Assembly (NCBI GenBank): GCA_934096715.1
Contig: CAKOMQ010000001.1
Location: forward strand, 40,611-104,610
Direction of reading: 5' to 3'
Source of the DNA: an uncultured Bacilli bacterium
GTDB lineage: Bacteria > Bacillota_I > Bacilli_A > RF39 > UBA660
DNA: 64,000 nucleotides
A program made the translations under genes and the position numbers. The notes under the pieces are model-generated. The model was not told the origin of the DNA and did not search any database. It saw nothing but the letters and a program-made list of their open reading frames with translations. This document shows, piece after piece, positions 5,484 through 63,661 of the stretch (position 1 is its first letter; every line of letters starts with the position of its first letter).

Positions 5484-5773
5484 TATTTAAATAGTTTTGT
5501 TAATAAACTTTCTTCTTTTCCTTTTTTAACAGATTCAATATATTGAAAGCTATTAATTTTTCCTTTTATCTTTACATTACCATCATGAGTATCTAATTTA
5601 ATAACTTCTAATTTTTCACCTTTAATATGAATCATTCCCATTACTGATTCTAACAAAAATTCTTCATTATCAAAACTAACTATCTTTTTAATACCAGTAA
5701 GAGTTATAATACCCCTATCAATTATTTTTAATTCATGATTACCAAAATTTATTGACTCAGTTCCATTTTCCAT
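5483..5773 (-). CDS. yabP: Sporulation protein YabP
   Basis: 96 aa. YabP-like sequence (LTGIKKIVSFDNEEFLLES..IKGEKLEVIKLD) and synteny. Confidence 0.8.
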   Translation of the reverse strand: MENGTESINFGNHELKIIDRGIITLTGIKKIVSFDNEEFLLESVMGMIHIKGEKLEVIKLDTHDGNVKIKGKINSFQYIESVKKGKEESLLTKLFK

Positions 5774-5815: not shown

Positions 5816-7156
5816 CTATTCGGCAAATATTTTCTTATAATTTTCTTGATTAAGAGTAATAACTACTTTTTCTTTTGTGTAAGGGAAATTAATTCGTTTA
5901 CCTTTTAATTCATCTTTAATTTCACTAACAATATCAAATGGAGTCACTTTTTTTTCAAAACAAATATTTTCATCATCACTATAATATTCTTTTGTAATTT
6001 TACATTCAATATAGTTGCTACAATAGTAATCGATTACAATATTATTTTTAGAATTATCAATTTTATAATCAATATATAAATAGTCATGAATATTTACATT
6101 ATCTAAATTATCAATAATCATAGTGTCCATTTTGACTAGTTTATCATCATTTACTATTTCATAACTTTCAAGTTCAACTAATGCAGCTCCGGACATTAAT
6201 CCAAATAAGACAATACTTGAGAAAAAGAGTATAAATGAAACTTTATAATTATATTCTAAATTAAAAACATAAGAATATAAAAGTTTAATAAACAAATAAC
6301 TTATAACTAGTAATGTCAAAATAATTATCGAAACATAAATAAATAGTATTCCTGTATTAGCTAAGTAAATTGAAAAAACAAGTGACATGGCGAGTACAGC
6401 TATCCCCATTAATATTGGGATTGAGAAGAATAGAATGAATGCTTTAAAACATACTCTAAATATCCTGCCAAATATTCCAAAAAAATGATTAGTACTGTCT
6501 TTATAATCTCTTACTATTATTTTTTCTGTTTGTTTATTACTTATTTGTAATTCGGGTTCAGTCTTTTCTTCAACTTTATTTAATTCTTTATTGATTATTT
6601 GATCATTTAAAAGATAATAATTTAAATATCTGATATTAAATAAGTGAAATAAAATAATAACACTAAGAATCGTACATAGTAAATAAGTAATCGCTGATAC
6701 AAATCTATTGAAAAACTCTAAAAAATAATTCCCCCAGAATATATTTCTAAATATGCTTTCAATACCACTACTTATGATCATCGACAATATATATAAAATA
6801 AACGATACAAAAAGTAGTTCAAATACACATTTAAGTAATTCCCTAAAAGTCATTCTAGAAAACGTATTAATAACTTTAGTAATATAATCTATAAATATTT
6901 TATAATAACTCTTTAAAGTATTTTTATTTACTTTATTTAACTTTACTGATTCTCCTATTACACCATCATCAAGTAAATCTTCTAGCTTACATTCTAGTAT
7001 TTTTGTTAATTCAATTATTTTATCCATATCAGGATAAGAAGAACCGTTTTCCCACTTACTTACCGACTGACGAGAAACATTCATTTTCTCAGCTAATTGT
7101 TCTTGAGATAAATTACTTTCCTTACGTTTCCTTGCTAACTTATCTGAAAATCTCAT
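5816..7156 (-). CDS. XRE-family HTH protein fused to a multi-pass membrane domain
   Basis: 446 aa. N-terminal LSQEQLAEKMNVSRQSVSKWENG helix-turn-helix, several hydrophobic segments, soluble C-terminal region. Confidence 0.6.
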   Translation of the reverse strand: MRFSDKLARKRKESNLSQEQLAEKMNVSRQSVSKWENGSSYPDMDKIIELTKILECKLEDLLDDGVIGESVKLNKVNKNTLKSYYKIFIDYITKVINTFSRMTFRELLKCVFELLFVSFILYILSMIISSGIESIFRNIFWGNYFLEFFNRFVSAITYLLCTILSVIILFHLFNIRYLNYYLLNDQIINKELNKVEEKTEPELQISNKQTEKIIVRDYKDSTNHFFGIFGRIFRVCFKAFILFFSIPILMGIAVLAMSLVFSIYLANTGILFIYVSIIILTLLVISYLFIKLLYSYVFNLEYNYKVSFILFFSSIVLFGLMSGAALVELESYEIVNDDKLVKMDTMIIDNLDNVNIHDYLYIDYKIDNSKNNIVIDYYCSNYIECKITKEYYSDDENICFEKKVTPFDIVSEIKDELKGKRINFPYTKEKVVITLNQENYKKIFAE

Positions 7157-16462: not shown

Positions 16463-16499
16463 AATATCACCTACAAACAAACGTTTTATTACTAAATAT

Positions 16500-16580
16500 A
16501 AAAAATGCACACACAAACAGGGATTGATGTGGCTGCTGTATTCCTACTCTGACCAGATTACAATATATTTGTTGTGCAAT
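16500..16580 (-). ncRNA. ffs: Small (4.5S-type) signal recognition particle RNA
   Basis: Minus-strand read: UGCACAACAAA..CUGGUCAGAGUAGGAAUACAGCAGCCACAUC..UUUGUGUGUGCA followed by UUUUUU. Domain IV core GGUCAG-AGUA-GGAA-UAC-AGCAGCC matches E. coli GGUCAG-GUCC-GGAA-GGA-AGCAGCC with compensatory stem changes. The termini pair with each other. Adjacent to tadA and dnaX as scr is in Bacilli. Confidence 0.85.
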
Positions 16581-16583
16581 ATA

Positions 16584-16611
16584 ATTGTATCATATATTTT
16601 AATCATTACAA
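16584..16611 (-). promoter_or_regulatory. Sigma-A type promoter for ffs
   Basis: On the minus strand: -35 TTGTAA (16611-16606), 16 nt spacer, extended -10 TGATACAAT (-10 hexamer at 16589-16584). This puts the start about 6 nt before UGCACAAC. Confidence 0.6.
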
Positions 16612-16625
16612 TAATTTTTCAGCAA

Positions 16626-16641
16626 TGTTTCACGTGAAACA
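16626..16641. promoter_or_regulatory. parS site 1 (perfect TGTTTCACGTGAAACA), type I flank
   Basis: Exact 16-mer, read directly from the sequence. Confidence 0.9.
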
Positions 16642-16670
16642 TAAAAAATATAATTTAAAAATTACAAAAA

Positions 16671-16686
16671 TATTTCCCGGGAAATA
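16671..16686. promoter_or_regulatory. NBS-type palindrome 1 (perfect TATTTCCCGGGAAATA)
   Basis: Exact 16-mer, 45 bp centre-to-centre from parS 1. Confidence 0.85.
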
Positions 16687-16717
16687 TTTTTTTAACCAAT
16701 TCTCTAGAAATTTGTCT

Positions 16718-16731
16718 GGGAAATATTTCCC
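16718..16731. promoter_or_regulatory. Everted-NBS palindrome 1 (GGGAAATATTTCCC)
   Basis: Exact 14-mer, 46 bp from NBS 1. Confidence 0.8.
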
Positions 16732-16791
16732 AAAGCATTAAATTATATATAGTGAATAATAATTATTAAACAAATATTTAACTATTAACAA

Positions 16792-16807
16792 TGTTTCACG
16801 TGAAACA
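16792..16807. promoter_or_regulatory. parS site 2 (perfect), type II flank
   Basis: Exact 16-mer, read directly from the sequence. Confidence 0.9.
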
Positions 16808-16939
16808 TAGAATATAATATGATCTAATTTTAACTAATTATTAATTAATATAAAATAAATATAACATTAAAAAAGCTATTATTATTAACACTAAATTATA
16901 TTATTAATTATTATTTAATAAACAATTGATTTTCAACAA

Positions 16940-16955
16940 TGTTTCACGTGAAACA
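16940..16955. promoter_or_regulatory. parS site 3 (perfect), type I flank
   Basis: Exact 16-mer, read directly from the sequence. Confidence 0.9.
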
Positions 16956-16986
16956 TTAAAAATATAATTTAAAAATAATTGAAAAT

Positions 16987-17002
16987 TATTTCCCGGGAAA
17001 TA
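16987..17002. promoter_or_regulatory. NBS-type palindrome 2 (perfect)
   Basis: Exact 16-mer, 47 bp from parS 3. Confidence 0.85.
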
Positions 17003-17031
17003 TTTTTTACCAATTCTCTAGAAATTCGCTT

Positions 17032-17045
17032 GGGAAATATTTCCC
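17032..17045. promoter_or_regulatory. Everted-NBS palindrome 2
   Basis: Exact 14-mer inside the 22 bp perfect palindrome GCTTGGGAAATATTTCCCAAGC. Confidence 0.8.
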
Positions 17046-17217
17046 AAGCATTAAATGAATTATAATTTCCATTAACAAAAAATAAATAATCGTCTAACTA
17101 TTAATAATAATGAGTGTGAAACAAAATAAGTAATTATACACTAAAAAATTTAATTATACCTATATTTAATATTCTGTATTTGAAAATAACAATTAATAAA
17201 GAGCTATGCAATGTCAA

Positions 17218-17233
17218 TGTTTCACGTGAAACA
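17218..17233. promoter_or_regulatory. parS site 4 (perfect), type II flank
   Basis: Exact 16-mer, read directly from the sequence. Confidence 0.9.
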
Positions 17234-17360
17234 TATGATATAATATGATCTAATTTTAACTAATTATTAATTATATATAAAATATATATAACATTAAAGC
17301 TATTATTAATACTAAATTAAATTTATATTTATTATTTAATAAGCAATAAAATTTCAACAA

Positions 17361-17376
17361 TGTTTCACGTGAAACA
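17361..17376. promoter_or_regulatory. parS site 5 (perfect), type I flank
   Basis: Exact 16-mer, read directly from the sequence. Confidence 0.9.
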
Positions 17377-17406
17377 TTAAAAATATAACTAAAAAATGAA
17401 CAAAAT

Positions 17407-17422
17407 TATTTCCCGGGAAATA
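17407..17422. promoter_or_regulatory. NBS-type palindrome 3 (perfect)
   Basis: Exact 16-mer, 46 bp from parS 5. Extended palindrome AAAATTATTTCCCGGGAAATAATTTT. Confidence 0.85.
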
Positions 17423-17453
17423 ATTTTATTACCAATTCTCTGGAAATTCGTAT

Positions 17454-17467
17454 GGGAAATATTTCCC
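17454..17467. promoter_or_regulatory. Everted-NBS palindrome 3
   Basis: Exact 14-mer, 46 bp from NBS 3. Confidence 0.8.
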
Positions 17468-17527
17468 AAAGCATTAAATTAAATATAGTAAATAATTAAT
17501 ATTAAACAAATGATTAACTATTAACAA

Positions 17528-17543
17528 TGTTTCACGTGAAACA
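17528..17543. promoter_or_regulatory. parS site 6 (perfect), type II flank
   Basis: Exact 16-mer, read directly from the sequence. Confidence 0.9.
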
Positions 17544-17671
17544 TATGATATAATATGATCTAATTTTAACTAATTATAAATATAAATAAAATAATATAAC
17601 AATAAAGTTATTTTTATTAATACTAAATTATATAAATGATTACTATTTAATAAACTATAATTTTTCAACAA

Positions 17672-17687
17672 TGTTTCACGTGAAACA
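17672..17687. promoter_or_regulatory. parS site 7 (perfect), type I flank
   Basis: Exact 16-mer, read directly from the sequence. Confidence 0.9.
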
Positions 17688-17717
17688 TTAAAAATATAAT
17701 TTAAAAATAAGTAAAAT

Positions 17718-17733
17718 TATTTCCCGGGAAATA
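17718..17733. promoter_or_regulatory. NBS-type palindrome 4 (perfect)
   Basis: Exact 16-mer, 46 bp from parS 7. Confidence 0.85.
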
Positions 17734-17764
17734 ATTTTATTACCAATTCTGTAGAAATTCGCTT

Positions 17765-17778
17765 GGGAAATATTTCCC
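17765..17778. promoter_or_regulatory. Everted-NBS palindrome 4
   Basis: Exact 14-mer inside a 22 bp perfect palindrome. Confidence 0.8.
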
Positions 17779-17949
17779 AAGCATTAAGTGAATTATAATT
17801 TTCATTAACGAAAAATAAATAATCGTTAACTATTAATAATAATGAGTGTGAAACAAAATACGTAATTATACACAAAAAAATCTAATTATACTTACATTTA
17901 ATATTTTTTATTTAAAAATAGAAATTAACAAAGAACTATATATTGCCAA

Positions 17950-17965
17950 TGTTTCACGTGAAACA
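17950..17965. promoter_or_regulatory. parS site 8 (perfect), hybrid flanks (left type II-long, right type I)
   Basis: Exact 16-mer. Flank comparison suggests a recombinant junction. Confidence 0.9.
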
Positions 17966-17995
17966 TTAAAAGTATAAATTAAAAATGAGTAAAAT

Positions 17996-18011
17996 TATTT
18001 CCCGGGAAATA
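17996..18011. promoter_or_regulatory. NBS-type palindrome 5 (perfect)
   Basis: Exact 16-mer, 46 bp from parS 8. Confidence 0.85.
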
Positions 18012-18041
18012 ATTTTTAACCGATCTTCTAGAAATTTACTT

Positions 18042-18055
18042 GGGAAATATTTCCC
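18042..18055. promoter_or_regulatory. Everted-NBS palindrome 5
   Basis: Exact 14-mer, 45 bp from NBS 5. Confidence 0.8.
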
Positions 18056-18195
18056 AAAAAGTATAATTTTAATTTCACCACTATCTATTAAAGGCGTTAG
18101 GCATTAATATAATTTAAAAAATAATAAATGTTGAGAATTTATTAAAATAATAAAACAAACGTATTTTCGTAATCTCTTTTAAATTTAATTAAAAT

Positions 18196-18211
18196 TATTT
18201 CCCGGGAAATA
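18196..18211. promoter_or_regulatory. NBS-type palindrome 6 (perfect), no partner parS
   Basis: Exact 16-mer. Confidence 0.85.
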
Positions 18212-18242
18212 ATTTTATTACCAATTCTCTAGAAATTCGCTT

Positions 18243-18256
18243 GGGAAATATTTCCC
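18243..18256. promoter_or_regulatory. Everted-NBS palindrome 6
   Basis: Exact 14-mer, 46 bp from NBS 6 and 28 bp from NBS 7. Confidence 0.8.
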
Positions 18257-18262
18257 AAAAAG

Positions 18263-18292
18263 AAAAAAATATTTCCCGGGAAATATTTTTTT
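18263..18292 (-). terminator. Intrinsic (bidirectional) terminator downstream of gyrA, built on NBS 7
   Basis: 30 bp perfect palindrome with a GC core, flanked by A and T runs on both sides. Begins 7 nt after the gyrA stop. Confidence 0.7.
18270..18285. promoter_or_regulatory. NBS-type palindrome 7 (perfect), core of the gyrA terminator hairpin
   Basis: Exact 16-mer inside the 30 bp perfect palindrome AAAAAAATATTTCCCGGGAAATATTTTTTT. Confidence 0.85.
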
Positions 18293-18298
18293 AATAAA

Positions 18299-20758
18299 TT
18301 ATTTATCTGGAGTAGAATTTTCATTATCAACAGAAACAAATTCATCTTCTTCAACTAAACTAACAGTAGCTACTTTTTGATCGTCTTTTAAATTAATTAA
18401 CCTTAATCCTTGTGTTGCACGACCAAGTGTTGATATTTGACTTAAAGGCATCTTCATTGTCATACCAGTATTACTCATAAGAATAACATCCATGTTATCA
18501 GCTACTACTTTAATATCAATCAACATACCATTTTTTTCAGTAACATTAAGAGCTTTTACTCCCTTACTACCACGCTTAGTTTGCCTAAATTCAGAAACAT
18601 TAGTAATTTTACCATAACCTTTTTCAGTGACAATTAAAATTTTATTATCTTCATTAACAACTTCAGAACAAATAGTAATACCACCATCATTGTTTATACC
18701 GCGAACTCCAGAAGCAGTTCTACCCATAGGTCTTATATCTTGTTCATCAAATTTAACTACTTTACCAGAACTAGAACCGAGCAATATAAGATCATTATCG
18801 TTTATCTTCTTAACTCCTATTAATTCATCATTTTCTTTTAAATTAATACAAATTTTACCAGATTTACGAATACTATCAAACTCACTTATTGGAGTCTTTT
18901 TAACAATACCCTTTTTAGTAGCCATAAACAAATATTTGAATTTTTCTTCTCTATCAATACAAATAATTGAATTTATGTTTTCATCTTTCTCAATTTGTAA
19001 TAAATTGATAATAGGAATACCCTTAGATGTTCTACTAAATTCAGGAATTTCATATCCTTTTATACGATATACCTTACCTTTATTAGTAAAGAATAAAACA
19101 TGATCATGCGTACAAATATTTAGAATTTTATCCACCGCATCTTCATTATTAGTAGTTAATCCTTTTACGCCTACTCCTCCACGATTTTGAGTTCTAAATG
19201 TATCATTAGGAACTCTCTTGATATAATTATTTTTAGTTAACATAATCATACAATTTTCTTCAGGAATAAGTGATTCATCTTCAATATATTCAACAGCAGT
19301 CATATCGATTTTAGTTCTTCTATCATCAGCATATTTATCCTTAATTTCAGTTAATTCAGCTTTTATTATGCCATAAACTCTTTCATCAGAAGCTAAAATA
19401 GCACGTAAATCTTGAATTTTTTCTAGTAATTCATTAAGTTCATTCTCTATTTTGTCTCTTTCTAATCCAGTTAATCTTCTTAACTTCATCTCTAAAATTG
19501 CATCAGATTGAAGTTCACTTAATCCAAAGTTTTCCATCAAGCCTTTTTTAGCTACATCATCTGTTTTAGATGCTCTAATAAGCTTAATTACCTCATCAAT
19601 ATGATCTAAAGCAATCTTTAACCCCTCTAATATATGAACTCTTTTTTCTGCTTTGTCTAGCTCAAATCTCGTTCTTCTAATAACTATTTCTTTTTGATAT
19701 TCAATGTACTTAGCAATAATATCTTTTAATCCTAATGTCTTAGGAACACCTTTATCAAGCATTAAGAATATAATACCAAAATTATTTTGAAACTGAGTAT
19801 GTTTATACAAATTATTTAAAACAACTTGTGGATTAGCATCCTTTTTTAATGTAATAGTAATTTTAATACCTGTTTTAAGATCGGTATGATAATCAGCAAT
19901 TCCATCTATAGTCTTATTATGAACTAACTCAGCAACTTTATTTTTAAGATCCATAGTATTAATTCCATATGGAACTTCATCTATTATAATATAGTGTTTA
20001 CCATTCTTTTCTTCAATAGTTGCTTTACTTCTTATAGTAATAGATCCACGACCTGTTTCATAAGCTTTTTTAATACCACTATTTCCAAGAATAATGCCCC
20101 CGGTAGGAAAATCAGGACCTTTTATGTATTGCATTAATTCTGCAACAGTAATATTAGGATTATCAATATAATGAATACAGCCATCAATGACTTCTCCTAA
20201 ATTATGTGGTGGTATATTAGTAGCCATACCAACAGCAATACCCATAGTACCGTTAACCAAAATATTTGGATACCTAGATGGTAAAATAGATGGTTCTTTC
20301 TCATTTTCATCAAAATTTGGTACAAAATCGACTGTGTCTTTATTAATATCTCTTAATAACTCCAAAGAAATCTTTGAAAGTCTAGATTCGGTATAACGCA
20401 TCGCTGCTGCACCATAACCTTCAATATTACCAAAGTTACCATGTCCATCAACTAACATGTATCTATAACTAAAATCTTGAGCCATTCTCACCATAGCTTC
20501 GTATATTGAACTATCTCCATGTGGATGATATTTACCCATTACATCTCCGACAATACGTGCCGATTTACGATGTGGTTTATCAGGTGTATATCCTGATTCA
20601 TACATAGACCATAATATTCTTCTATGAACTGGTTTTAAACCATCTCTTAAATCAGGAAGAGCACGTGATATGATAACACTCATTGAATAGTCAAGAAATG
20701 ATGTTTCAATTTCATTAACTATATTATTTTCTTCTAATCTATCCTTACTGTGATCCAT
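18299..20758 (-). CDS. gyrA: DNA gyrase subunit A
   Basis: 819 aa. Active-site motif AAMRYTE, C-terminal beta-pinwheel repeats. Confidence 0.97.
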
Positions 20759-23868: not shown

Positions 23869-24315
23869 TTAAAGAAATTTCAACTTAAAATTATTATTTA
23901 CAATATTTTTTAAAAGAACACATTTAATTATCAAATGATAAAATGAATTAAGTGAAATATTTAACATTATGTCAAAATCATTAGATAATTTAACCACTAA
24001 ATAATCATTATTTTTGTTGATATTTACTATCTTATCAACATTTATTAAAATAAACTCATTATTACGTATACTACCAATACATATAAATATCTTATTGTTA
24101 TCAATAAAAATTGGGTTTTTATATTTAGAATCTAACACTTTATTAACAAACTCTTTTCTACCTTTAAAACTACTACCATAAACTATACAACTATTATCTA
24201 AAATCTTAGTTATCTTTGTATTAGTATTAATTAATCTATTAGTCTCTCTAATAATTATTTTATTTTCATCTTTTTTTAAATACAATGTGTCTTCATTAAC
24301 AATATATTTTTCCAT
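23869..24315 (-). CDS. comK: ComK-family competence transcription factor
   Basis: ILDNSCIVYGSSFKGRKEFVNKVLDSKYKNPIFID..ISLNSFYHL aligns with B. subtilis ComK IVDRSCRFFGSSYAGRKAGTYEV..HKPPIMVD..ISYNSFENQ (recalled from memory). Start set at ATG 24315 behind GGGGGA. The ORF-track extension to 24369 is hydrophobic junk. Confidence 0.7.
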   Translation of the reverse strand: MEKYIVNEDTLYLKKDENKIIIRETNRLINTNTKITKILDNSCIVYGSSFKGRKEFVNKVLDSKYKNPIFIDNNKIFICIGSIRNNEFILINVDKIVNINKNNDYLVVKLSNDFDIMLNISLNSFYHLIIKCVLLKNIVNNNFKLKFL

Positions 24316-24400
24316 ATTATTCCCCCGTGAGTAACTACTATAACAAATTAAGATTAAAAAAATTGTCAAAAAAAATATTAAATAACCAAATTTAATATTT

Positions 24401-25637: not shown

Positions 25638-26993
25638 TTACAACTTTGCTTTAATTTCTTTCAACGTATTATTCAAAAGATCATTATTTGTTAAATCTTT
25701 TTTTATTTTCTCACAACTTGCTACTACCGTCGAATGATCTCTTCCGCCAAATTCTAAACCTATTTTAGCCAAATTTTCATCAGTTTCAATTCTACAGAGA
25801 TACATTGCTATATGTCTTGGTTTTGCAATATTATTACTTCTCTTTTTGCTTTTCAAATCTTCAACTGTTATTTTATAATAATCAGCTACTACTCTTTGAA
25901 TATGTGAAATAGTATTTTCTTGATAAATATTAGTATTTAAATAATCATTTAATGCTTCAACCGCAAAGTCTAAATCAATTCTATCGGGTAAATTTAAAGC
26001 TGTATATACAAGCAATCTATTTATAGTACCAAAAATATGTCTTATATCGGTAGTAGAAGCATTTGCAATGTATTCAATAACATCCTTATTAACTCTATCT
26101 TTTATACTTGAATTATTAATTTTTTGTTTTATTAGTTCACATCTTAGTTCAAAGTCTGGTGGATAAATATCTACTGGTAATCCCCATGTAAATCTACTTC
26201 TAAGTCTCTCTTCAATCTTTTTTAAATCATCTGGAGATCTATCACTAGATATAATTATCTGTTTATTAGCTTGATGTAAAGCATTAAAAGTATGAAAAAA
26301 TTCTTGTTGAGTAAGCTCAGCCCCTACCAAAAATTGAATATCATCTATTATTAATACATCAACATTACGATATTTACTTTTGAAGTTATTCGCATAGTTG
26401 ATTGACTGTGTTCCTTTCTCAATTTTAGATATATTTGAAAATTCCGATACATAATCATTACTTGTTGTATACAAAACTTTTTTATTAGAGTGTTCTGTAA
26501 TATAATTTCCAATTGCATGCATTAGATGAGTTTTTCCAACCCCACTTCTACCATAAATAAAAAGTGGATTATGTATTGTGCCCGGTGTTTGAGCAACATT
26601 CATTGCAGATACAAATGCGAGTCGATTGGACTCCCCAACTATAAAGTTATCAAAATTTAATTCAGGATTTAAGTTAGTATTCCACTCAACTATATTTTCT
26701 TCTTCTTCCTTTGTACTATTAAACTCTTCAATAGTATTAATTTCATCATTAGTTAAGAAATTAATTTCATAATTAATTCCTGTTAGCGAAAATAAAGTTT
26801 CTTCCATTAAATCTAAGTGACTAGTTAATGCAGTTTTATAAACTGGAATTGGAACCTTAATATTTATAACCTTATCATCCATTTTTAAAAGTTCAATATC
26901 CTTAAACCATATATTATAGGTAGTCGGATTTACTACTTTTTCAATTTCACTTAAAAAGACTTTAAAGATCTCATCTGTTTTCAAATCCACCAC
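25638..26993 (-). CDS. dnaA: Chromosomal replication initiator DnaA
   Basis: 451 aa. Walker A GRSGVGKTHL, C-terminal GGRDHSTV DNA-binding signature. GTG start. Confidence 0.97.
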   Translation of the reverse strand: MVDLKTDEIFKVFLSEIEKVVNPTTYNIWFKDIELLKMDDKVINIKVPIPVYKTALTSHLDLMEETLFSLTGINYEINFLTNDEINTIEEFNSTKEEEENIVEWNTNLNPELNFDNFIVGESNRLAFVSAMNVAQTPGTIHNPLFIYGRSGVGKTHLMHAIGNYITEHSNKKVLYTTSNDYVSEFSNISKIEKGTQSINYANNFKSKYRNVDVLIIDDIQFLVGAELTQQEFFHTFNALHQANKQIIISSDRSPDDLKKIEERLRSRFTWGLPVDIYPPDFELRCELIKQKINNSSIKDRVNKDVIEYIANASTTDIRHIFGTINRLLVYTALNLPDRIDLDFAVEALNDYLNTNIYQENTISHIQRVVADYYKITVEDLKSKKRSNNIAKPRHIAMYLCRIETDENLAKIGLEFGGRDHSTVVASCEKIKKDLTNNDLLNNTLKEIKAKL

Positions 26994-27054
26994 CCCACTT
27001 TGAACAAATTTATCTCAATTTAATTTTAACTTAATAACATTTTTTTTACAAGGA

Positions 27055-27225
27055 AAACTTTTATTAACACAGTTATTAACATACTTATCAACATATAAGT
27101 TCCTGTATCTATCTATGATAATTCAAGTTTTCAACATTTTCAACATTTTTTTGCCAAAATATCAAAGTTAATAAAATGTTACAACTATATTATAACGTTA
27201 AAAGTGTTGAAAAATTGTTTCTATC
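27055..27225. promoter_or_regulatory. oriC part 1: DnaA-box cluster between dnaA and rpmH
   Basis: TTATTAACA (27061, 27073), TTATCAACA (27085), abutting TTTTCAACA TTTTCAACA (27128-27145), inverted TGTTGAAAA (27215-27223). Confidence 0.7.
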
Positions 27226-27267
27226 CTTATTATATATATAAATCATAATGTCATAGTGCAGTTTTGC

Positions 27268-27297
27268 TTGACTATTCCCTAAAATTCATATTATAAT
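27268..27297 (+). promoter_or_regulatory. Sigma-A promoter for rpmH-rnpA
   Basis: -35 TTGACT (27268-27273), 18 nt spacer, -10 TATAAT (27292-27297). Confidence 0.65.
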
Positions 27298-27325
27298 AAT
27301 ATCGCTTACAGAAAGAGGTGTTAAA

Positions 27326-27439
27326 ATGAAAAGAACTTATCAACCAAATAAAAGAAGAAGAGCAAAAAAACATGGATTCTTTGCTCGTAAAGGAACAAAG
27401 ATTTTAAATAATCGTCGTAGAAAAGGTCGTAAGGAATTA
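27326..27439 (+). CDS. rpmH: 50S ribosomal protein L34 (3' end apparently frameshifted)
   Basis: Not in ORF track. RBS AGAGGTG. Translation is [37 protein letters not shown]-stop. The +1 frame from 27421 reads KGRKELIK-stop (to 27447), which matches the canonical L34 tail. Confidence 0.85.
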
Positions 27440-27469
27440 ATTAAATAATTTCTTGCGTGTTTTTTTAAT

Positions 27470-33453: not shown

Positions 33454-34413
33454 GTGAATAGAGAGTCACAAATTTTACAAGTGCCTATTGAAGATATTAT
33501 ACCTAATCGTTTTCAACCACGATTAAATTTTGACGACTCTTCATTACAGGAGTTAGCGGCATCAATTAAACAACATGGTATAATTCAACCACTAGTATTA
33601 AGAAAAACAGGAGATAAATATGAAATAATTGCTGGAGAAAGAAGATATAAAGCATCTCAAATAGCTGGTCTTGCAAGTGTTCCCGCAATTATAACTCAAA
33701 TGGATGATAAAAAATCTGCTGAAGTAGCAATTGTTGAAAATATTCAAAGAAGAGATTTATCTAGTATAGAAGAAGCAAGAAGTTATAAAGCATTACTAGA
33801 TAAGGGATACCTAACTCAAGAAGATTTAGCTAAACAAATGGGTATTAGTCAATCGCAAATTTCTAATAAACTAAGATTATTAACTTTAACTGAAGAAGTT
33901 CAACAAGCTTTGATGGAAGGAAAAATTTCCGAAAGACACGCACGAAGTCTACTTCAAGTAACAGATCCAGAAGAGCAAAAAAAATGGTTAGAAAAAATAA
34001 TTACAGAAAGACTAACTGTAAGAGATTTAGAGAAAAAGATTAAAGGAAAAGAAGATAATAATCAACCCATAATTAATATTAATCCAAACATTGAAGATAT
34101 AGTTAAAAATGCTCATGACATAGTAAATTCTTCGATTACTAAACAAACAGAATCAGCTACTCCTGAAGAGAAAATGGAAAACAAATTCTTTAACCCTTTA
34201 GAAAGTGTTTCAGTAAATATGAATTTAAATGATACTCCAGGTGAAGAAGTAGAATTACTAGATTTTGAATTACCTTCTAATATAATTAGAGATGATAAAA
34301 ATGAATTAATTATTAAAATTAAAAATTATATTAATAGTTTAAATAATAATAGAATTAAAATTAATGAGTCAGATATTGACAATAAACATCAAATTATTAT
34401 TACAATAGAATAA
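33454..34413 (+). CDS. noc: ParB/Noc-family CTPase DNA-binding protein, Noc-type recognition helix, no N-terminal membrane-targeting helix
   Basis: 319 aa. GTG start behind AGGGGAAG. NRFQPR and GERRYKA ParB boxes. HTH region SQSQISNKLRLL..ISERHARSLL and LSSIEEA resemble B. subtilis Noc rather than Spo0J (recalled from memory). Sits directly after rsmG, as noc does. Confidence 0.75.
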   Translation: MNRESQILQVPIEDIIPNRFQPRLNFDDSSLQELAASIKQHGIIQPLVLRKTGDKYEIIAGERRYKASQIAGLASVPAIITQMDDKKSAEVAIVENIQRRDLSSIEEARSYKALLDKGYLTQEDLAKQMGISQSQISNKLRLLTLTEEVQQALMEGKISERHARSLLQVTDPEEQKKWLEKIITERLTVRDLEKKIKGKEDNNQPIININPNIEDIVKNAHDIVNSSITKQTESATPEEKMENKFFNPLESVSVNMNLNDTPGEEVELLDFELPSNIIRDDKNELIIKIKNYINSLNNNRIKINESDIDNKHQIIITIE

Positions 34414-34442
34414 AAAACATCAATTTGAAGTGATGTTTTTTT
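34412..34442 (+). terminator. Terminator hairpin between convergent noc and PBP genes
   Basis: AAAAAACATCA..TGATGTTTTTTT. Overlaps the last codons of the minus-strand PBP gene. Confidence 0.6.
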
Positions 34443-36387
34443 CATTATTTTCTTTATTAACTATTTGCGCTTTAGTTGGTTCTGTACCTGCAACATAATA
34501 AAACATACTTGCTTTATTTACATCAGTAGTAATTGTTCCTGTTACACTATTTAACATTACTCCTACTACATTTTTTGGAGTTTCATACCAACTATTTCTT
34601 TTTTTTATTTGCTCCATTGTATCAGCCCAAACATTCTTTCCGAGTGACCCATATCCTTTAGTAAATTCCCTATTATCATCATATCCTGACCAAATTAACA
34701 TAAGCTCATCTGGATTATACCCTACACACCAATAATCTCCGTCAGTAGTACCAGTTTTAATAGAGTATTTTTGACTTAATTTACCCGCAATAGACAACGC
34801 TGTTGGATTTGTATAATCTTTAAATGTCGGATTAGTTGTATTTGTAAGAAGTTCATTTAATATATAAGTATAGTTAGGATTCAGAACAAGTTGTTTATTA
34901 CTTTTATGTTCATATATAACATTATCATTTTTATCAGTTATTTTTTTAATAAAATATAAATCTTTTTTATATCCACCACTAGCAAGTGTGGAATAGCCTC
35001 TAGCATAATCTAACATAGTTATTTCACTAGTTCCTAATGCCAATGAAGCATTCTTTTTAAGTTCTTCTCTAATACCTGCCCTATTTGCAATTTCAATTAA
35101 TGAATCTACTCCTAGAAATAAATTAGTTTTTACTGCATAAACATTATCAGAAAACGCAATAGCGGCAGCCATAGTTATTTCTTTATTAGCATATAAATTA
35201 CCGTAATTAGAAGGAGAATATGAATTTTTATTATTTATATTAAAAGTTGTCATTTCACTTTTAAAAGTAGAAGACGATGTCATATTATTTTCTAGTGCTG
35301 CATAATAAAGAAAAGGTTTCATAGTTGAACCCACTTGCCTTTTAGCTTTAGTTGCCCTATTAAATTCACTTAAAGCATAGTCCCTACCCCCAGTTAATGC
35401 TTCAATTTCTCCTGTACTAGGATTAGTTATAATACTTGCTACTTGTAATTCTTCAACATCTCCAAAATACTTAAGAATATTATTTTCTAAAGCAGTTTGC
35501 TTTTCCATATCTAAACAAGTATAAATTTTAAGTCCCCCCTTCTCTAGTATCTCTCTATTTATACCTAAGTTAGATAGTTCATCAATAACAGCATCTTGAT
35601 AATACATTAGCATTTGTAAGTTATTACTTTCTGATTTACCATAAATCTCTACACTATCAAAATCTAACTTATCATATTCATCTTTAGTTAATTTATTTTC
35701 TTTATACATAAGCTTAGCAACTATTCTTGCTCTTTTTATACATTCTTCTTTATTACTAACTGGATTATAATTATTAGGGCTCTTTGGTATACCTGCTAAC
35801 ATTATTGATTCTTCAAGTGTTAATTCACTTACTTTTTTATTAAAATAGTAGCTACTCGCATTACTTATTCCATAGTTTCCTTGCCCATAGTTTATTGTAT
35901 TTAAATATGCTTCTAAAATATCATCTTTATCGTATTGCATTTCTGTAATAATAGTTAAAAATGCTTCCTTCCCTTTTCTTTCCCATGTCTTATCAAAATC
36001 TAAATACAAATTTTTAACAAGTTGTTGAGTAATAGTAGACGCTCCTTCTACTATTCTTTTACTTTTCATATTATTCATAAGCGCTTTTCCAATTCTAAGT
36101 ACATCAAAGCCATAATGGTTATAAAAATTTTTATCTTCAATTGATATAACTGCATCTTTAGTTTCTTTTTTTATTTCCTTAATATCTATCCAACTCTTAG
36201 AACTACTTCCTTGATAAATTATGTTATCTTTATTATCGTATATGAAGTAAGTCCCACTAGATTCTATATTAAGTTTAGGAGAAATACTAGCGTATATATA
36301 GACACCAAGATAGCTAACTAAAACAAAAATAAATATAAAAGTCATCAATTTTATTAGTACTTTAAAAGCTTTCATTTTCTTCACCAA
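34420..36387 (-). CDS. Bifunctional class A penicillin-binding protein (transglycosylase/transpeptidase)
   Basis: 655 aa. N-terminal TM, GT51 motifs EDKNFYNHYGFD and GASTITQQL, transpeptidase STMKP. Confidence 0.9.
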   Translation of the reverse strand: MVKKMKAFKVLIKLMTFIFIFVLVSYLGVYIYASISPKLNIESSGTYFIYDNKDNIIYQGSSSKSWIDIKEIKKETKDAVISIEDKNFYNHYGFDVLRIGKALMNNMKSKRIVEGASTITQQLVKNLYLDFDKTWERKGKEAFLTIITEMQYDKDDILEAYLNTINYGQGNYGISNASSYYFNKKVSELTLEESIMLAGIPKSPNNYNPVSNKEECIKRARIVAKLMYKENKLTKDEYDKLDFDSVEIYGKSESNNLQMLMYYQDAVIDELSNLGINREILEKGGLKIYTCLDMEKQTALENNILKYFGDVEELQVASIITNPSTGEIEALTGGRDYALSEFNRATKAKRQVGSTMKPFLYYAALENNMTSSSTFKSEMTTFNINNKNSYSPSNYGNLYANKEITMAAAIAFSDNVYAVKTNLFLGVDSLIEIANRAGIREELKKNASLALGTSEITMLDYARGYSTLASGGYKKDLYFIKKITDKNDNVIYEHKSNKQLVLNPNYTYILNELLTNTTNPTFKDYTNPTALSIAGKLSQKYSIKTGTTDGDYWCVGYNPDELMLIWSGYDDNREFTKGYGSLGKNVWADTMEQIKKRNSWYETPKNVVGVMLNSVTGTITTDVNKASMFYYVAGTEPTKAQIVNKENNEKNITSN

Positions 36388-39091: not shown

Positions 39092-39130
39092 TATTAACTA
39101 TAATTAATCATAATTTACTTGGGTGACATT

Positions 39131-39637
39131 ATGAAAAAAATTATAGTTATTTTATTTTTATTAGTAAGTATTTCAGTAATAGTTAATGAAAAAGAAAATA
39201 TTCTAATTCCTAAAGATGCTATTAGATTTAGAATTATTGCTAATAGTGATTCAATGGAAGATCAAGAATTAAAACTTACGATCAAAAATGATGTAGAAAA
39301 AGAATTATTTACTCTTTTAAAAGGGGCTGAAACCATAGATGAAGCTAGAAATAGAATAAATGATAATATAAATTCTATAAAAAAAATAGTAGATAAATAC
39401 AATGTTAGATATGATATAACTTATGGAAATAATTATTTCCCAACAAAAGAATATAAAGGAGTAAATTATACTGAAGGAAATTATGAATCTTTAGTTATAA
39501 GCTTGGGTAACGCTGTAGGCAAAAACTGGTGGTGTGTTTTATTTCCACCATTATGTATGCTTGATGAACAAACAAACCTATCTGATAAAGATTATCGCTT
39601 TTTTGTATATGATTTAATTAATAAAACTAACAAATAA
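39131..39637 (+). CDS. spoIIR: Stage II sporulation protein R
   Basis: RFRIIANSDS..NWWCVLFPPLC SpoIIR signature. Signal-like N-terminus. Start at ATG 39131. Confidence 0.85.
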   Translation: MKKIIVILFLLVSISVIVNEKENILIPKDAIRFRIIANSDSMEDQELKLTIKNDVEKELFTLLKGAETIDEARNRINDNINSIKKIVDKYNVRYDITYGNNYFPTKEYKGVNYTEGNYESLVISLGNAVGKNWWCVLFPPLCMLDEQTNLSDKDYRFFVYDLINKTNK

Positions 39638-44305: not shown

Positions 44306-45190
44306 ATGAACAAGATATTATTATTTTTAGTAGTATTGTTGGGAGTAATTTATATTAATATAAGTAGTACAACTCATGGTACTACTTTTTTTGAAGATAA
44401 AACTATAAAAGTAAAGAAAGATAATAACATTAACTCTCTAAAATTAGAAGAATATATAATTGGTGTAGTAGCGGCTGAAATGCCTGCTTCTTTTAATATT
44501 GAAGCTCTAAAAGCCCAAGCTATCGCTGCAAGGACATATGCAGTATACAAAATGGGTCAAAATAATGATTATGACATAATTGCAAGTGTATCTAACCAAG
44601 GTTATATAACTAAAGAAGAAATGCGTTCTATTTGGAAAGATAATTATGATTTATATTATACAAAAATTTATAAAGCAGTTACAGATACTAAAGATTTAGT
44701 AATGAAGTACAATAATCAAGTAATTGAATCTTACTACTTTGCCATGAGTAACGGTTATACTGAAAAATCTAGTCTAGTATTTAATCAAGACAGAGATTAT
44801 TTAGATAGTGTTAAAGTAGAGTATGATAATAGTAGTTTAAATAACTTTGAAAAGACTATTACTTTAACTAAAGAAGAATTTTGTACTAAGTTAAATTTAC
44901 CTAGCCAAAATATAGTTATTAACAATATAAATAGATCAACCACTAATCGAGTTATAACTATAACAATAAATAACATTAGTTTTAAAGGAACAGAAATTAG
45001 AAAATTACTTAACTTAAGGTCTACCGATTTTAATATTAATATAAGTAACAATATTATTATTACTACTAGGGGATATGGCCATGGAGTTGGTATGAGCCAG
45101 TATGGCGCTAATGGAATGGCCAATTCTGGTTATACATACGAAGATATTCTCCATTATTATTACAAAAATATTCAAATAGATAAAATATAA
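44306..45190 (+). CDS. spoIID: Stage II sporulation protein D
   Basis: 294 aa. EALKAQAIAARTYA and GHGVGMSQYGA SpoIID motifs. Confidence 0.9.
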   Translation: MNKILLFLVVLLGVIYINISSTTHGTTFFEDKTIKVKKDNNINSLKLEEYIIGVVAAEMPASFNIEALKAQAIAARTYAVYKMGQNNDYDIIASVSNQGYITKEEMRSIWKDNYDLYYTKIYKAVTDTKDLVMKYNNQVIESYYFAMSNGYTEKSSLVFNQDRDYLDSVKVEYDNSSLNNFEKTITLTKEEFCTKLNLPSQNIVINNINRSTTNRVITITINNISFKGTEIRKLLNLRSTDFNINISNNIIITTRGYGHGVGMSQYGANGMANSGYTYEDILHYYYKNIQIDKI

Positions 45191-54569: not shown

Positions 54570-54666
54570 GTTTTCAACAAATATTACGAAAAAGTGCTTA
54601 AATTCCACCTAAAAATGGTGGTTTTAAAATACTCTTTTATATGTAATTTAGGTGCAGGAGATAAAT

Positions 54667-54891
54667 ATGAATTTAAATGAAGTAATAATTAAAAAAAGGA
54701 AAGAGAATAATTTAACTCAAGAAGAATTAGCAGAAAAATTAAATGTAGCTAGACAAACAGTTTCTAAATGGGAAACTGGTGAAACAACACCAGACTTTAA
54801 TAGCTTAAAGGATCTAGCAATAACTCTAAATTTTTCAGTAGATAATATCATCGGTATTGAAAAGGAAGAAAATGATGATATAACCGAATGA
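54667..54891 (+). CDS. XRE-family HTH regulator (C-terminal part apparently decayed)
   Basis: LTQEELAEKLNVARQTVSKWETG. Start at ATG 54667 behind AGGAGA. Confidence 0.7.
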   Translation: MNLNEVIIKKRKENNLTQEELAEKLNVARQTVSKWETGETTPDFNSLKDLAITLNFSVDNIIGIEKEENDDITE

Positions 54892-61444: not shown

Positions 61445-61648
61445 TAGTTGATTAAGAAGTTAATGAGTAAGTTAATAATCAATTATAGAGAGTTGATGGT
61501 TGGTGAAAATCAATATTGTGTTTAACTGAATATGGTTAATGGAGTCAAATCGGTTAAGACCGTTATATCTATAAGTGTATGAACTATTCATAAAATAAGG
61601 TGGTACCGCGGGTATTAACTCGTCCTTTGTTTTATGAATTTTTTTATT
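61445..61648 (+). promoter_or_regulatory. T-box riboswitch leader (tRNA-sensing transcription attenuator)
   Basis: Stem I elements GAGTAA, AGAGAG and GGTGAAAA. Specifier-loop candidate TGAATATGG. T-box sequence AAGGTGGTACCGCG (61597-61610). Terminator CATAAAATAAGG..CCTTTGTTTTATG followed by a T7 run. Confidence 0.85.
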
Positions 61649-61659
61649 GGAGGCTAATT

Positions 61660-62151
61660 ATGGAAAGATATTTTGAAAAAATAAGTTTTGATGAATTTAA
61701 GAAAAGTATTGATAATAATATTGAACTATACAATAGTTATGAATTACCAGTTAGAAAAACAAAGTATAGTGCTGGATATGATTTCATTGCTATCAAAGAT
61801 TATGAGATTAAACCAGGAGAAATAGTTAAAATTCCTACTGGATATAAAGCTAAATTTAATGAAGATGAAATGCTTATGCTTATAGTTCGTAGCAGTATTG
61901 GCTTTAAGTATAACGTACGGATGTGTAATCAAATAGGTATCATAGAAAGTGACTATTACAATAATGAAAGTAACGAAGGTCACATGTTTGTAGCACTTCA
62001 AAATGAAGGAAAAGAAATATTTAAAATAAATAAAGGAGATGCTTATATCCAAGGGATATTCACTAAATTTCTAACTTGTGGAGATGAAGTAAGTGATATA
62101 AGAACTGGTGGTATGGGCAGTACTAATAGAAAGAAGGATAAAAATGAATAA
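61660..62151 (+). CDS. dut: dUTP diphosphatase (trimeric dUTPase family)
   Basis: GIIESDYYNN and C-terminal RTGGMGST motifs. Start at ATG 61660 behind GGAGG. The ORF-track start 61600 lies inside the T-box terminator. Confidence 0.8.
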   Translation: MERYFEKISFDEFKKSIDNNIELYNSYELPVRKTKYSAGYDFIAIKDYEIKPGEIVKIPTGYKAKFNEDEMLMLIVRSSIGFKYNVRMCNQIGIIESDYYNNESNEGHMFVALQNEGKEIFKINKGDAYIQGIFTKFLTCGDEVSDIRTGGMGSTNRKKDKNE

Positions 62152-63661
62152 AAAATTTTATATAACAACTCCTATATATTATCCAAGTGCGGAATTTCAT
62201 ATAGGGCATTGTTATACAACAATAATTGCTGACGCAATTGCAAGATACAAAAGATTAGATGGCTATGATGTATATTTTCAAACTGGAACAGACGAACATG
62301 GTTTAAAAATAGAAAATAAAGCTAAAGAAAAAGGAGTTACTCCAAAAGAATATGTTGACGTTATCATTGATAATGCTAAAGACTTATGGAAACAACTAGG
62401 AATATCATATGATTACTTTATAAGAACAACTGATGAAGATCACAAAAAAAGAGTACAAAAAATATTTAATATCCTTTATGAAAAAGGGGATATTTACAAA
62501 AGTGAATATGAAGGACTTTACTGTGTACCATGTGAATCTTTCTGGACTTCAACTCAAGCTAAAGATGGACTATGTCCTGATTGTGGTAGACCAGTTGAAC
62601 TAGTAAAAGAAGAATCTTACTTCTTTAAACTAAGTAAATATCAAAAGAAATTAGAAGATTTTTATGAAGAAAATCCGAATTTCTTATTGCCGCTTTCACG
62701 TAAGAATGAAATGCTAAATAACTTTATTAAACCAGGACTAGAAGATTTATGCGTATCTAGAACTAGTTTCAAATGGGGAATACCTGTTAGCTTTGATCCT
62801 AATCATGTTATATATGTTTGGATAGATGCTTTAACAAATTATATTACTAGTTTAGGCTACCCCGATAATTTAGATAAATTTAATAAATATTGGCCAGCTG
62901 ACTTACATCTTGTTGGTAAAGAAATAGTAAGATTCCATGCTATAATCTGGCCTTGTATACTTATGGCCTTAGATTTACCACTACCTAAGCAAGTATTTGG
63001 TCATGGTTGGTTAATTGTAGATGGCGGAAAAATAAGTAAAAGCAAAGGAAATTATAAAGACCCAAGAGAGTACATTAATACATATGGTGAAGATGCTGTA
63101 AGATACTTTGCACTAAGAGAGGTTCCTTTTGGAAGCGATGGAAATTTTTCGGAAGATGCTTTAATTCTAAGAACAAATGGAGATTTAGCTAACGTTCTTG
63201 GAAATCTAGTTAGTAGAACTATTCAAATGGCAATTAAATATTTTGATGGAGTAGTCGAAAATAAACAAGTAAGTGAAGAGATAGATGAAGATTTAATAAA
63301 TAGTAAGAATTCGTTAAAAGGTTTAGTAGATGAAAAAATGAGTTCTTACAAAGTTAACGAAGCCTTAGAAATAATATTTGAAAACTTAAGAAAATGTAAT
63401 AAATATATTGATGAAACAGAACCATGGGTATTAAGTAAAGATGTTAATAAATTAGAAAGACTAGAAACCATTATTTATAATTTACTAGATAATATTAGAG
63501 TAAGTGCTATATTACTTGAACCATTTATTCCTGAAACAAGCAAAAAAATATTAAAATCATTAAACTTCGAAAGTAATGATTTCTCTTCATTAAATGCAGT
63601 TCATCTAAAATATGATGTTGGTTTAGAAAAGCCAGAAAATCTATTTAATAGGATTCAATAA
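62144..63661 (+). CDS. metG: Methionyl-tRNA synthetase (short form without C-terminal tRNA-binding domain)
   Basis: HIGH-type FHIGH, KMSKS-type KISKS, zinc knuckles CVPCESF and CPDCGRP. Start at ATG 62144 (MNKKFYITTPIYY). Confidence 0.95.
   Translation: MNKKFYITTPIYYPSAEFHIGHCYTTIIADAIARYKRLDGYDVYFQTGTDEHGLKIENKAKEKGVTPKEYVDVIIDNAKDLWKQLGISYDYFIRTTDEDHKKRVQKIFNILYEKGDIYKSEYEGLYCVPCESFWTSTQAKDGLCPDCGRPVELVKEESYFFKLSKYQKKLEDFYEENPNFLLPLSRKNEMLNNFIKPGLEDLCVSRTSFKWGIPVSFDPNHVIYVWIDALTNYITSLGYPDNLDKFNKYWPADLHLVGKEIVRFHAIIWPCILMALDLPLPKQVFGHGWLIVDGGKISKSKGNYKDPREYINTYGEDAVRYFALREVPFGSDGNFSEDALILRTNGDLANVLGNLVSRTIQMAIKYFDGVVENKQVSEEIDEDLINSKNSLKGLVDEKMSSYKVNEALEIIFENLRKCNKYIDETEPWVLSKDVNKLERLETIIYNLLDNIRVSAILLEPFIPETSKKILKSLNFESNDFSSLNAVHLKYDVGLEKPENLFNRIQ

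Follow-up and report, generated by a model that had tools for sequence, protein, structure and literature searches.

Alternating parS and Noc-binding palindromes beside gyrA in uncultured gut Bacilli, a candidate origin-proximal loading platform for two ParB-family clamps

ParB-parS and Noc-NBS (NBS, Noc-binding site) are the textbook paralogous DNA clamps gated by cytidine triphosphate (CTP), and they have been studied as separate systems at separate places. What does it mean, then, that in a large uncultured gut lineage the sites of both clamps stand a few helical turns apart, repeated and in phase, at one conserved origin-proximal locus? We examined a 64,000-nt stretch of contig CAKOMQ010000001.1 from an uncultured Bacilli bacterium (here referred to as the window), in which palindromes of both types are interleaved in a gap beside gyrA, together with related loci from other species. 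The reading that we favour, with a rough probability of 0.55, is that two different ParB-family CTP clamps load at the array, which would serve them as an origin-proximal platform. Neither the sites nor the protein family is new; the novelty lies in the composite, phased and syntenic array and in a Noc-type protein that lacks the helix of Noc.

Scanning of the window identified seven copies of the 16-bp palindrome TATTTCCCGGGAAATA, with the core ATTTCCCGGGAAAT, and eight copies of the 16-bp parS palindrome TGTTTCACGTGAAACA, every one of them perfect and all confined to a single 1.7-kb gene-free gap between the signal recognition particle (SRP) RNA gene and gyrA. The first palindrome is the NBS of Bacillus subtilis, as the NBS duplex in the Noc co-crystal, GGATATTTCCCGGGAAATATCC, contains the same 16-mer, and positions 1 and 6 of the half-site are the only ones that distinguish NBS from parS (PMC7383237). 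No further match to TATTTCCCGGGAAATA was found in the window even when two mismatches were allowed; seven copies compare with a chance expectation of 0.02 and were reached in none of 100 shuffles. Outside the array, parS was absent from the window at up to three mismatches, with an expectation of 0.27. Five of the seven NBS follow a parS at start-to-start distances of 45, 47, 46, 46 and 46 bp, and those at 18196 and 18270 have no parS partner. An earlier note, made from the letters of this DNA, had described seven perfect NBS palindromes of the B. subtilis type, two half-site positions away from parS, interleaved with parS and in five cases 45–47 bp after one, and all of this was confirmed. 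Its view that such a composite module may be undescribed agrees with a full-text literature search combining Noc, NBS, parS and ParB, which returned no description of interleaved or clustered parS/NBS arrays.

The components of the array, none of which has a strand, are the following:

16626–18285: the whole array, with 8 parS, 7 NBS and 6 everted palindromes; non-coding, from the SRP RNA gene to the gyrA stop codon
16626–16641: parS 1, perfect TGTTTCACGTGAAACA; opens composite module 1 (16626–16732)
16671–16686: NBS 1, perfect TATTTCCCGGGAAATA; 45 bp past parS 1
16717–16732: everted palindrome 1, TGGGAAATATTTCCCA
16792–16807: parS 2; lone, without an NBS partner
16940–16955: parS 3; opens composite module 2 (16940–17046)
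16987–17002: NBS 2; 47 bp past parS 3
17031–17046: everted palindrome 2, here lengthened to the 22-bp palindrome GCTTGGGAAATATTTCCCAAGC
17218–17233: parS 4; lone
17361–17376: parS 5; opens composite module 3 (17361–17468)
17407–17422: NBS 3; 46 bp past parS 5
17453–17468: everted palindrome 3
17528–17543: parS 6; lone
17672–17687: parS 7; opens composite module 4 (17672–17779)
17718–17733: NBS 4; 46 bp past parS 7
17764–17779: everted palindrome 4
17950–17965: parS 8; opens composite module 5 (17950–18056)
17996–18011: NBS 5; 46 bp past parS 8
18041–18056: everted palindrome 5
18196–18211: NBS 6; without a parS partner
18242–18257: everted palindrome 6
18270–18285: NBS 7; the gyrA open reading frame (ORF) ends 14 nt away; an NBS directly past gyrA is also seen in relatives

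The array arose by tandem duplication, with a module of about 167 nt present five times, a super-repeat of about 735 bp and three repeat families (D1, D4 and D6). It is this duplication of one module that accounts for the constant 46-bp phase in the window. Thus, the five parS-NBS pairs are one event that was copied, not independent observations, and independent support comes from the other species.

We scanned one-genome-per-species GTDB assemblies for the composite pattern parS-N20-40-NBS and detected it in at least 119 contigs, nearly all of them from uncultured gut metagenome-assembled genomes (MAGs) labelled as Bacilli, Erysipelotrichaceae, Tenericutes, 'Mycoplasma' or 'Clostridium sp. 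CAG'. As the pattern has 32 specified bases, its chance expectation is far under one. Array-bearing relatives include CP091739.1 and JAFYYX010000001.1. Among the 119 listed loci, homologues of gyrA flank the sites in 100, of tadA in 107 and of dnaX in 97, and even the longest DNA alignments with the window reach just 74–81% identity, showing that the loci belong to species other than that of the window. Mixed parS-NBS clusters are a feature of the lineage and recur at one chromosomal spot in more than 100 related species. The pattern was absent from 2.9 million viral contigs; a phage or mobile-element centromere was rejected on this ground and because the arrays are chromosomal and syntenic (plasmids were not searched).

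Across species, the sequence logos showed A-ATGTTTCACGTGAAACAT-T and AAAT-TATTTCCCGGGAAATA-ATTT to be conserved, that is, the palindromes with 1–4 flanking bases, and the spacers carried about 0 bits. When all sites matching TNTTTCNC/GNGAAANA were counted (744 sites), 407 were pure parS, 331 pure NBS and 5 single-base variants, and not one joined a parS half to an NBS half. The occurrence of two pure classes with no hybrids indicates two discrete readers. Neighbouring sites are of mixed type in 424 of 604 pairs, compared with 323 ± 10.5 on permutation (z = 9.5), and the excess of alternation is also present in arrays of at least six sites.

The earlier note had proposed a fixed phase of about 46 bp, which holds within the window but not in other species, where parS-NBS distances cluster at about 24–25, 36, 47 and 56–57 bp. 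What these distances share is a helical period of 10.5–10.75 bp (Rayleigh R of 0.33, against a maximum of 0.21 over 5000 jittered nulls), which persists within as well as beyond the range of distances that the search pattern imposed. The phase of the spacing, about 0.35–0.45 of a helical turn, would place adjacent dimers on roughly opposite faces of the helix. The shortest gaps between the two 16-mers start from 6 bp. Regarding orientation, parS and NBS showed no preferred order relative to gyrA (206 versus 216).

Each of the first six NBS in the window is followed 45–47 bp later by a further element, the everted palindrome TGGGAAATATTTCCCA, which consists of the NBS half-sites in swapped order and has six copies, three of which are lengthened to a 22-bp palindrome. 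Only 2 of the 119 related loci contain it, and apart from parS and NBS the species have no palindrome in common; therefore we consider it a species-level, nearly species-specific addition, and it was rejected as a third conserved component. It might hold Noc-type monomers in a geometry unable to close into a clamp.

To which protein could these sites belong? The window contains one candidate:

33454–34413, + strand: ParB-family gene encoding 319 aa, the sole one in the window, directly 3′ of rsmG; predicted NBS reader

The best PDB matches of its product are Noc structures (7NG0, 7NFU and 7OL9), both Pfam domains ParB_N and HTH_ParB match, and the protein has the CTP motifs GERRYKA and ENIQR. 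The top NCBIfam model is nucleoid_noc (TIGR04285), which aligns with residues 6–226 only and scores 274.6 bits, that is, under the family cut-off of 315. At the specificity positions 173/179/184/201, ParB carries R-T-A-G and Noc carries Q-K-K-R; adenine 1 is recognised by Q173 and cytosine 6 by R201, provided that position 179 or 184 holds a lysine, and R173 with G201 are invariant in true ParBs (Jalal et al., PMC7383237). The window protein has Q173, K179, T184 and R201, a Noc-type set in which K184 of Noc is replaced by T, with both switching residues and one permissive lysine kept. By the published rules, a protein with Q173, K179 and R201 should read NBS and not parS. None of these three residues varies among the 120 closest database homologues, at position 184 all 120 have S, T, A, N or Q and never K or R, and the Noc type (Q173/R201) is found in 159 of 160 species-level relatives.

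The same protein departs from Noc outside its DNA-reading residues. The N-terminal amphipathic helix of Noc tethers it to the membrane and is required for nucleoid occlusion (PMC8429893). In the window, the ORF begins just 16 residues ahead of PNRFQPR, with stop codons immediately upstream, so the product has no such helix; the AlphaFold model shows no extra N-terminal helix, and the short N-terminus is shared by 104 of the 120 homologues. The model consists of a ParB_N and helix-turn-helix (HTH) body (1–200), a disordered linker (203–279) and a small C-terminal alpha-beta-beta domain. Within the linker are two motifs, N-K-F-F-N..E (243–250) and E..E-L-L-D-F (265–271), most residues of which are invariant or more than 90% conserved, in surroundings that are otherwise disordered and highly variable (the length of the protein in relatives varies between about 250 and 600 aa). 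Both motifs probably bind a partner or the membrane; the hydrophobic moment of the first is similar to that of the Noc helix, which is a hint only. Of the order rsmG-noc-soj-spo0J, the first two genes are kept and are followed by a convergent PBP1A gene, and neither soj nor spo0J was found downstream of the Noc-type gene in the window or in the 160 relatives.

From these data we propose the following. That the site classes are discrete and perfectly conserved, and that the local protein has Noc-type residues, argues for two readers; the alternation and helical phasing argue that the two must share the DNA. The Noc-type protein of 33454–34413 would nucleate at the NBS palindromes. At the parS palindromes another reader, specific to parS, would nucleate, most probably a canonical R173/G201 ParB with its gene beyond the window. 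Each dimer would bind its own palindrome, close as a clamp on CTP and slide off, so that a few kb around the array would become coated by both proteins, with gyrA-gyrB on one side and tadA-dnaX-recR on the other. As the sites are pure and alternating, 25–57 bp apart at n + 0.35–0.45 turns, neighbouring dimers would sit on roughly opposite faces, and such a placement could let them co-occupy the DNA rather than exclude one another. The ParB-type roles would be segregation and SMC loading, and the two invariant short linker motifs of the Noc-type protein could recruit a partner. Findings from other species speak for this reading as well. Across relatives, the site types seem to shift in step with the specificity residues: where NBS are absent (contig Ga0318466_10012481, parS only), the orthologous protein has lost Q173 and R201, and mixed arrays share a contig (JAEELI010000012.1) or a MAG (CALVJI01) with a Noc-type gene. 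Staphylococcus aureus, with Noc and ParB and no ParA, provides a precedent (PMC5540599).

Several observations weigh against this proposal, the first being that the parS reader itself was not encountered. The searches covered the window, a 10-kb extension past its left end and 279 related loci, and not whole genomes. Neither a second ParB nor a ParA was found in the window by tblastn, by hidden Markov model (HMM) search or by Pfam on the remaining ORFs, nor was a canonical ParB or ParA found in the left extension, in the 119 array loci, or near the Noc-type gene (within 10 kb in 80 species and within 6 kb in 80 more). A degenerate codon scan of GTDB genomes for R173...G201 gave at least 120 matches; among those listed, L258 was the only one from the lineage, and this match is itself a variant of the rsmG-linked Noc-type gene; we regard the scan as a weak negative. 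Moreover, the pairing is not universal. In an unbiased sample of GyrA-anchored metagenome contigs, comprising 17 species-level groups with an intact gyrA-to-dnaX interval, just 8 groups had both site types in that interval, 5 had parS only, 2 NBS only and 2 neither. Thus, the locus is a general landing pad for either site type, with mixing common and not obligatory. Also, the alternation could partly be a neutral by-product of duplicating a unit with one site of each kind, and related species are non-independent observations. The idea of two paralogous clamps in the earlier note is supported for the predicted Noc-type reader (Q173, K179, R201), but a parS-reading ParB was not found in the loci searched.

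We then weighed the view that the two site types are co-located and not coupled, which we think improbable. Each type would need non-coding DNA near the origin, for which the gaps of the gyrA-tadA-dnaX region would serve as a landing pad, and duplication of a mixed unit would yield the alternation; ParB would act in segregation, and the Noc-type protein would tether the origin region or control replication, as in S. aureus. Consistent with this, every combination occurs in the unbiased sample; the absence of a preferred order relative to gyrA and the visible duplication of the window array from its ~735-bp unit fit as well, and single NBS occur at other conserved places near the origin, namely past the stop codon of gyrA, within dnaX and at the 3′ end of rsmG. 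However, the helical periodicity of the parS-NBS spacing persists across species with differing absolute distances, the alternation is in excess (also in the longer arrays), and gaps down to 6 bp imply at least mutual tolerance of the two proteins.

As for these single NBS, the Noc-type gene loci of 160 relatives contained 22 of them (12 across 1.24 Mb, 10 across 0.88 Mb) and no parS. Those that recur at fixed places in relatives (L363, L370, L371, L383, L386, L391 and L399, at ~5690–5730; L413, L416 and L423, at 8496; L495, at 17599; L496, at 19576) take two positions: about 280 bp before the Noc-type gene begins, where rsmG has its 3′ end, and about 90–135 bp past the gyrA stop. Conserved origin-proximal single NBS were also found within dnaX.

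A different explanation, also unlikely in our judgement, is that only one ParB-family protein exists, the rsmG-linked one, whose specificity shifts between parS and NBS types, with the arrays tracking it. Mixed arrays would then mark transition states, or a single protein would recognise both palindromes through two modes, or an unrelated factor would be responsible for parS. In agreement with this, no second ParB-family gene or ParA was present in any inspected sequence, and parS-only, NBS-only and mixed arrays occupy the same locus in related species. In addition, the gene in L258 (4369–6180, − strand; same as L331; contig CANRLQ010000012.1) reads R173, K179, N184 and G201, whereas its 79 nearest relatives have Q-K-N/E/D-R at the four positions; the codon changes CAA to CGA and AGA to GGA are two single A-to-G transitions, exactly at the specificity-switching codons, and the gene looks like a natural reversion from Noc type to ParB type. 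From a clade whose arrays are parS-only, the contig Ga0318466_10012481 (L494 16204–17829, L493 17303–17760) carries a parS-only array with a 36-bp period and no NBS across 31 kb, and its orthologous protein has E173, K179, T184 and G201, with GQRR in place of the conserved CTP-binding motif GERR, Q for N178 and N for R181. Between rsmG and this ParB-family gene are two ORFs without assignment (398 and 611 aa). On the other hand, JAEELI010000012.1 has a mixed array and a Noc-type gene on the same contig, and CALVJI01 has both within one MAG; accession matching between the hit lists gave two overlaps only, each an array with a Noc-type gene, and no paralogue pair. Look-ups anchored on DnaN and MnmG provided one complete data point for co-variation (L493 with L494), and three more hit rearranged origin regions. 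Altogether, the presence of NBS follows Q173/R201 (four data points). This lends some support to the suggestion in the earlier note of two specificities in ongoing co-evolution, as orthologues with R..G or E..G instead of Q..R exist and one of the relatives carrying them has a parS-only array.

Nevertheless, the absence of hybrids among 744 sites speaks against one relaxed reader, and both palindromes being kept perfect in more than 100 species is hard to fit with a transition state. In the published mutational scan, Q173 with R201 was NBS-specific, and dual-specificity variants had mostly T or S at 201 (PMC7383237). Furthermore, parB of S. aureus, which has Noc and ParB and no ParA, and in which Noc spreads over 8–10 kb, can be distant from noc (PMC5540599), and our searches did not extend to whole genomes. 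It is quite doubtful, in particular, that a canonical ParB is missing altogether from these gut Bacilli and that the rsmG-linked protein toggles between parS type (R/E173, G201) and NBS type (Q173, R201) by single-nucleotide steps, with the array co-evolving. If so, one protein would read two discrete palindromes, or a non-ParB factor would have taken over parS, and this would be a natural, ongoing ParB-to-Noc specificity switch of the kind until now reconstructed only in the laboratory.

Lastly, it is very improbable that the palindromes are repetitive extragenic palindromic (REP)-like repeats, terminators or mobile-element remnants unrelated to ParB-family proteins: each palindrome can fold into a short hairpin (−6 to −8.5 kcal/mol), the 22-bp everted element into one of −14.8 kcal/mol, and A and T runs flank NBS 7 directly past gyrA, but the hairpin z-scores of NBS are unremarkable, no terminator-like site was predicted within the array and no copies exist elsewhere in the 64 kb, the palindromes match the parS and NBS defined by experiment exactly (PMC7383237), and in about 100 species the sites are syntenic and conserved while the spacers are not, with none in viral contigs. 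The earlier note had named a generic terminator or REP element as what would overturn it; this candidate was rejected.

Compared with Noc-NBS of B. subtilis and S. aureus, the window has the identical 16-bp palindrome, a ParB-family N-terminal domain with CTP motifs, the residues Q173, K179 and R201, and the gene directly 3′ of rsmG; as in S. aureus, no ParA was found. Unlike the known NBS, which are single, spread over the origin-proximal chromosome and depleted towards the terminus, those of the window number seven in 1.7 kb and are interleaved with parS. Its protein differs in having no membrane-targeting helix, which defines Noc function, no K184 and a long disordered linker with two motifs, and in scoring under the NCBIfam noc cut-off.

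Origin-proximal parS clusters are typically ParB nucleation sites from which ParB loads SMC. The window is similar to such chromosomal centromeres in its several perfect consensus parS within ~10 kb of oriC, but here parS alternate with a paralogous second site type, and neither an R173/G201 ParB nor a ParA was seen in the window or in the surroundings of the orthologous locus in relatives. Tandem arrays of short sites with regular spacing, expanded by duplication, are also known from sopC of F and parS of P1, which are on mobile elements and have a single centromere-binding protein. The parS-only clade among the relatives, with tandem parS at strict 36, 38 or 61-bp periods, resembles these, whereas the window array is chromosomal and syntenic, has two site types and has no counterpart in viral contigs. 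In plasmid RK2, the ParB-family CTP clamp KorB and its partner KorA use two nearby site types, such that a sliding clamp meets a site-bound partner; KorA is not a ParB paralogue and KorB-KorA represses plasmid transcription. In the window, on the contrary, both site types are ParB-family specificities and no regulated promoter is evident at the array. Finally, the ram sites of RacA in B. subtilis are a cluster near the origin that anchors the origin during sporulation; the window likewise has an origin-near site cluster in a probable spore-former, but the protein family and motif differ and there is no sign of polar anchoring.

The array raises the question of what happens when two kinds of sliding clamp load on the same DNA, whether collision, mutual roadblock or co-spreading, and that of a task other than nucleoid occlusion for a helix-less Noc-type protein. 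The natural Q/R, R/G and E/G variants of one orthologous gene also open the co-evolution of DNA-binding specificity and its targets to study. On the practical side, many metagenome contigs terminate inside the array or within a few hundred bases past gyrA (L411–L458; e.g. L411, L412, L417–L420, L450, L455 and L458), indicating that the repeat breaks short-read assemblies right beside the origin.

The landmarks of the surrounding region are as follows:

16491–16586, − strand: SRP RNA gene, left boundary of the array
18299–20758, − strand: gyrA, right boundary of the array
25638–27469: dnaA (25638–26993, − strand) and its upstream intergenic region, presumed oriC; GC skew sign change

The GC skew switches sign at 26–28 kb of the window, in the upstream region of dnaA, which is why oriC is presumed to lie there. 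This puts the array 8.7–10.4 kb from the presumed origin, as near to it as parS sites are expected to be. No enrichment of DnaA boxes was detected within the array. The gene order around the origin is similar to that of Bacillus, with recR, ybaB, dnaX, tadA, scr, the array, gyrA, gyrB, recF, a comK-like gene, dnaN and dnaA on its left, and rnpA, yidC, jag, mnmE, mnmG, rsmG, the ParB-family gene and the convergent PBP1A gene on its right. The G+C content is 20–31%, and protein sequences of the window also occur in human-gut metagenome assemblies (Hadza and others).

Sporulation and division genes were also identified, namely SpoIIR (39119–39637) and SpoIID (44306–45190) in the window, Spo0A just outside it (also listed: L209 11233–12006), YabP/YabQ and DivIC; thus, the organism is probably a spore-former. 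The lineage is often filed publicly as Tenericutes or Mycoplasma, yet it resembles a walled spore-former, and the PBP1A gene is at 34420–36387.

Two Xre-type HTH proteins, one of 446 aa with an N-terminal HTH_3 (5816–7156, − strand) and one of 79 aa with HTH_3 (54652–54888, + strand), have no evident tie to the array. The ComK-family ORF (23869–24369, − strand) lies in the dnaN/recF interval, a position that is kept in relatives (L491–L497), and a T-box leader (61445–61630, + strand, 113 bits) was detected upstream of the ORFs at 61600–63661.

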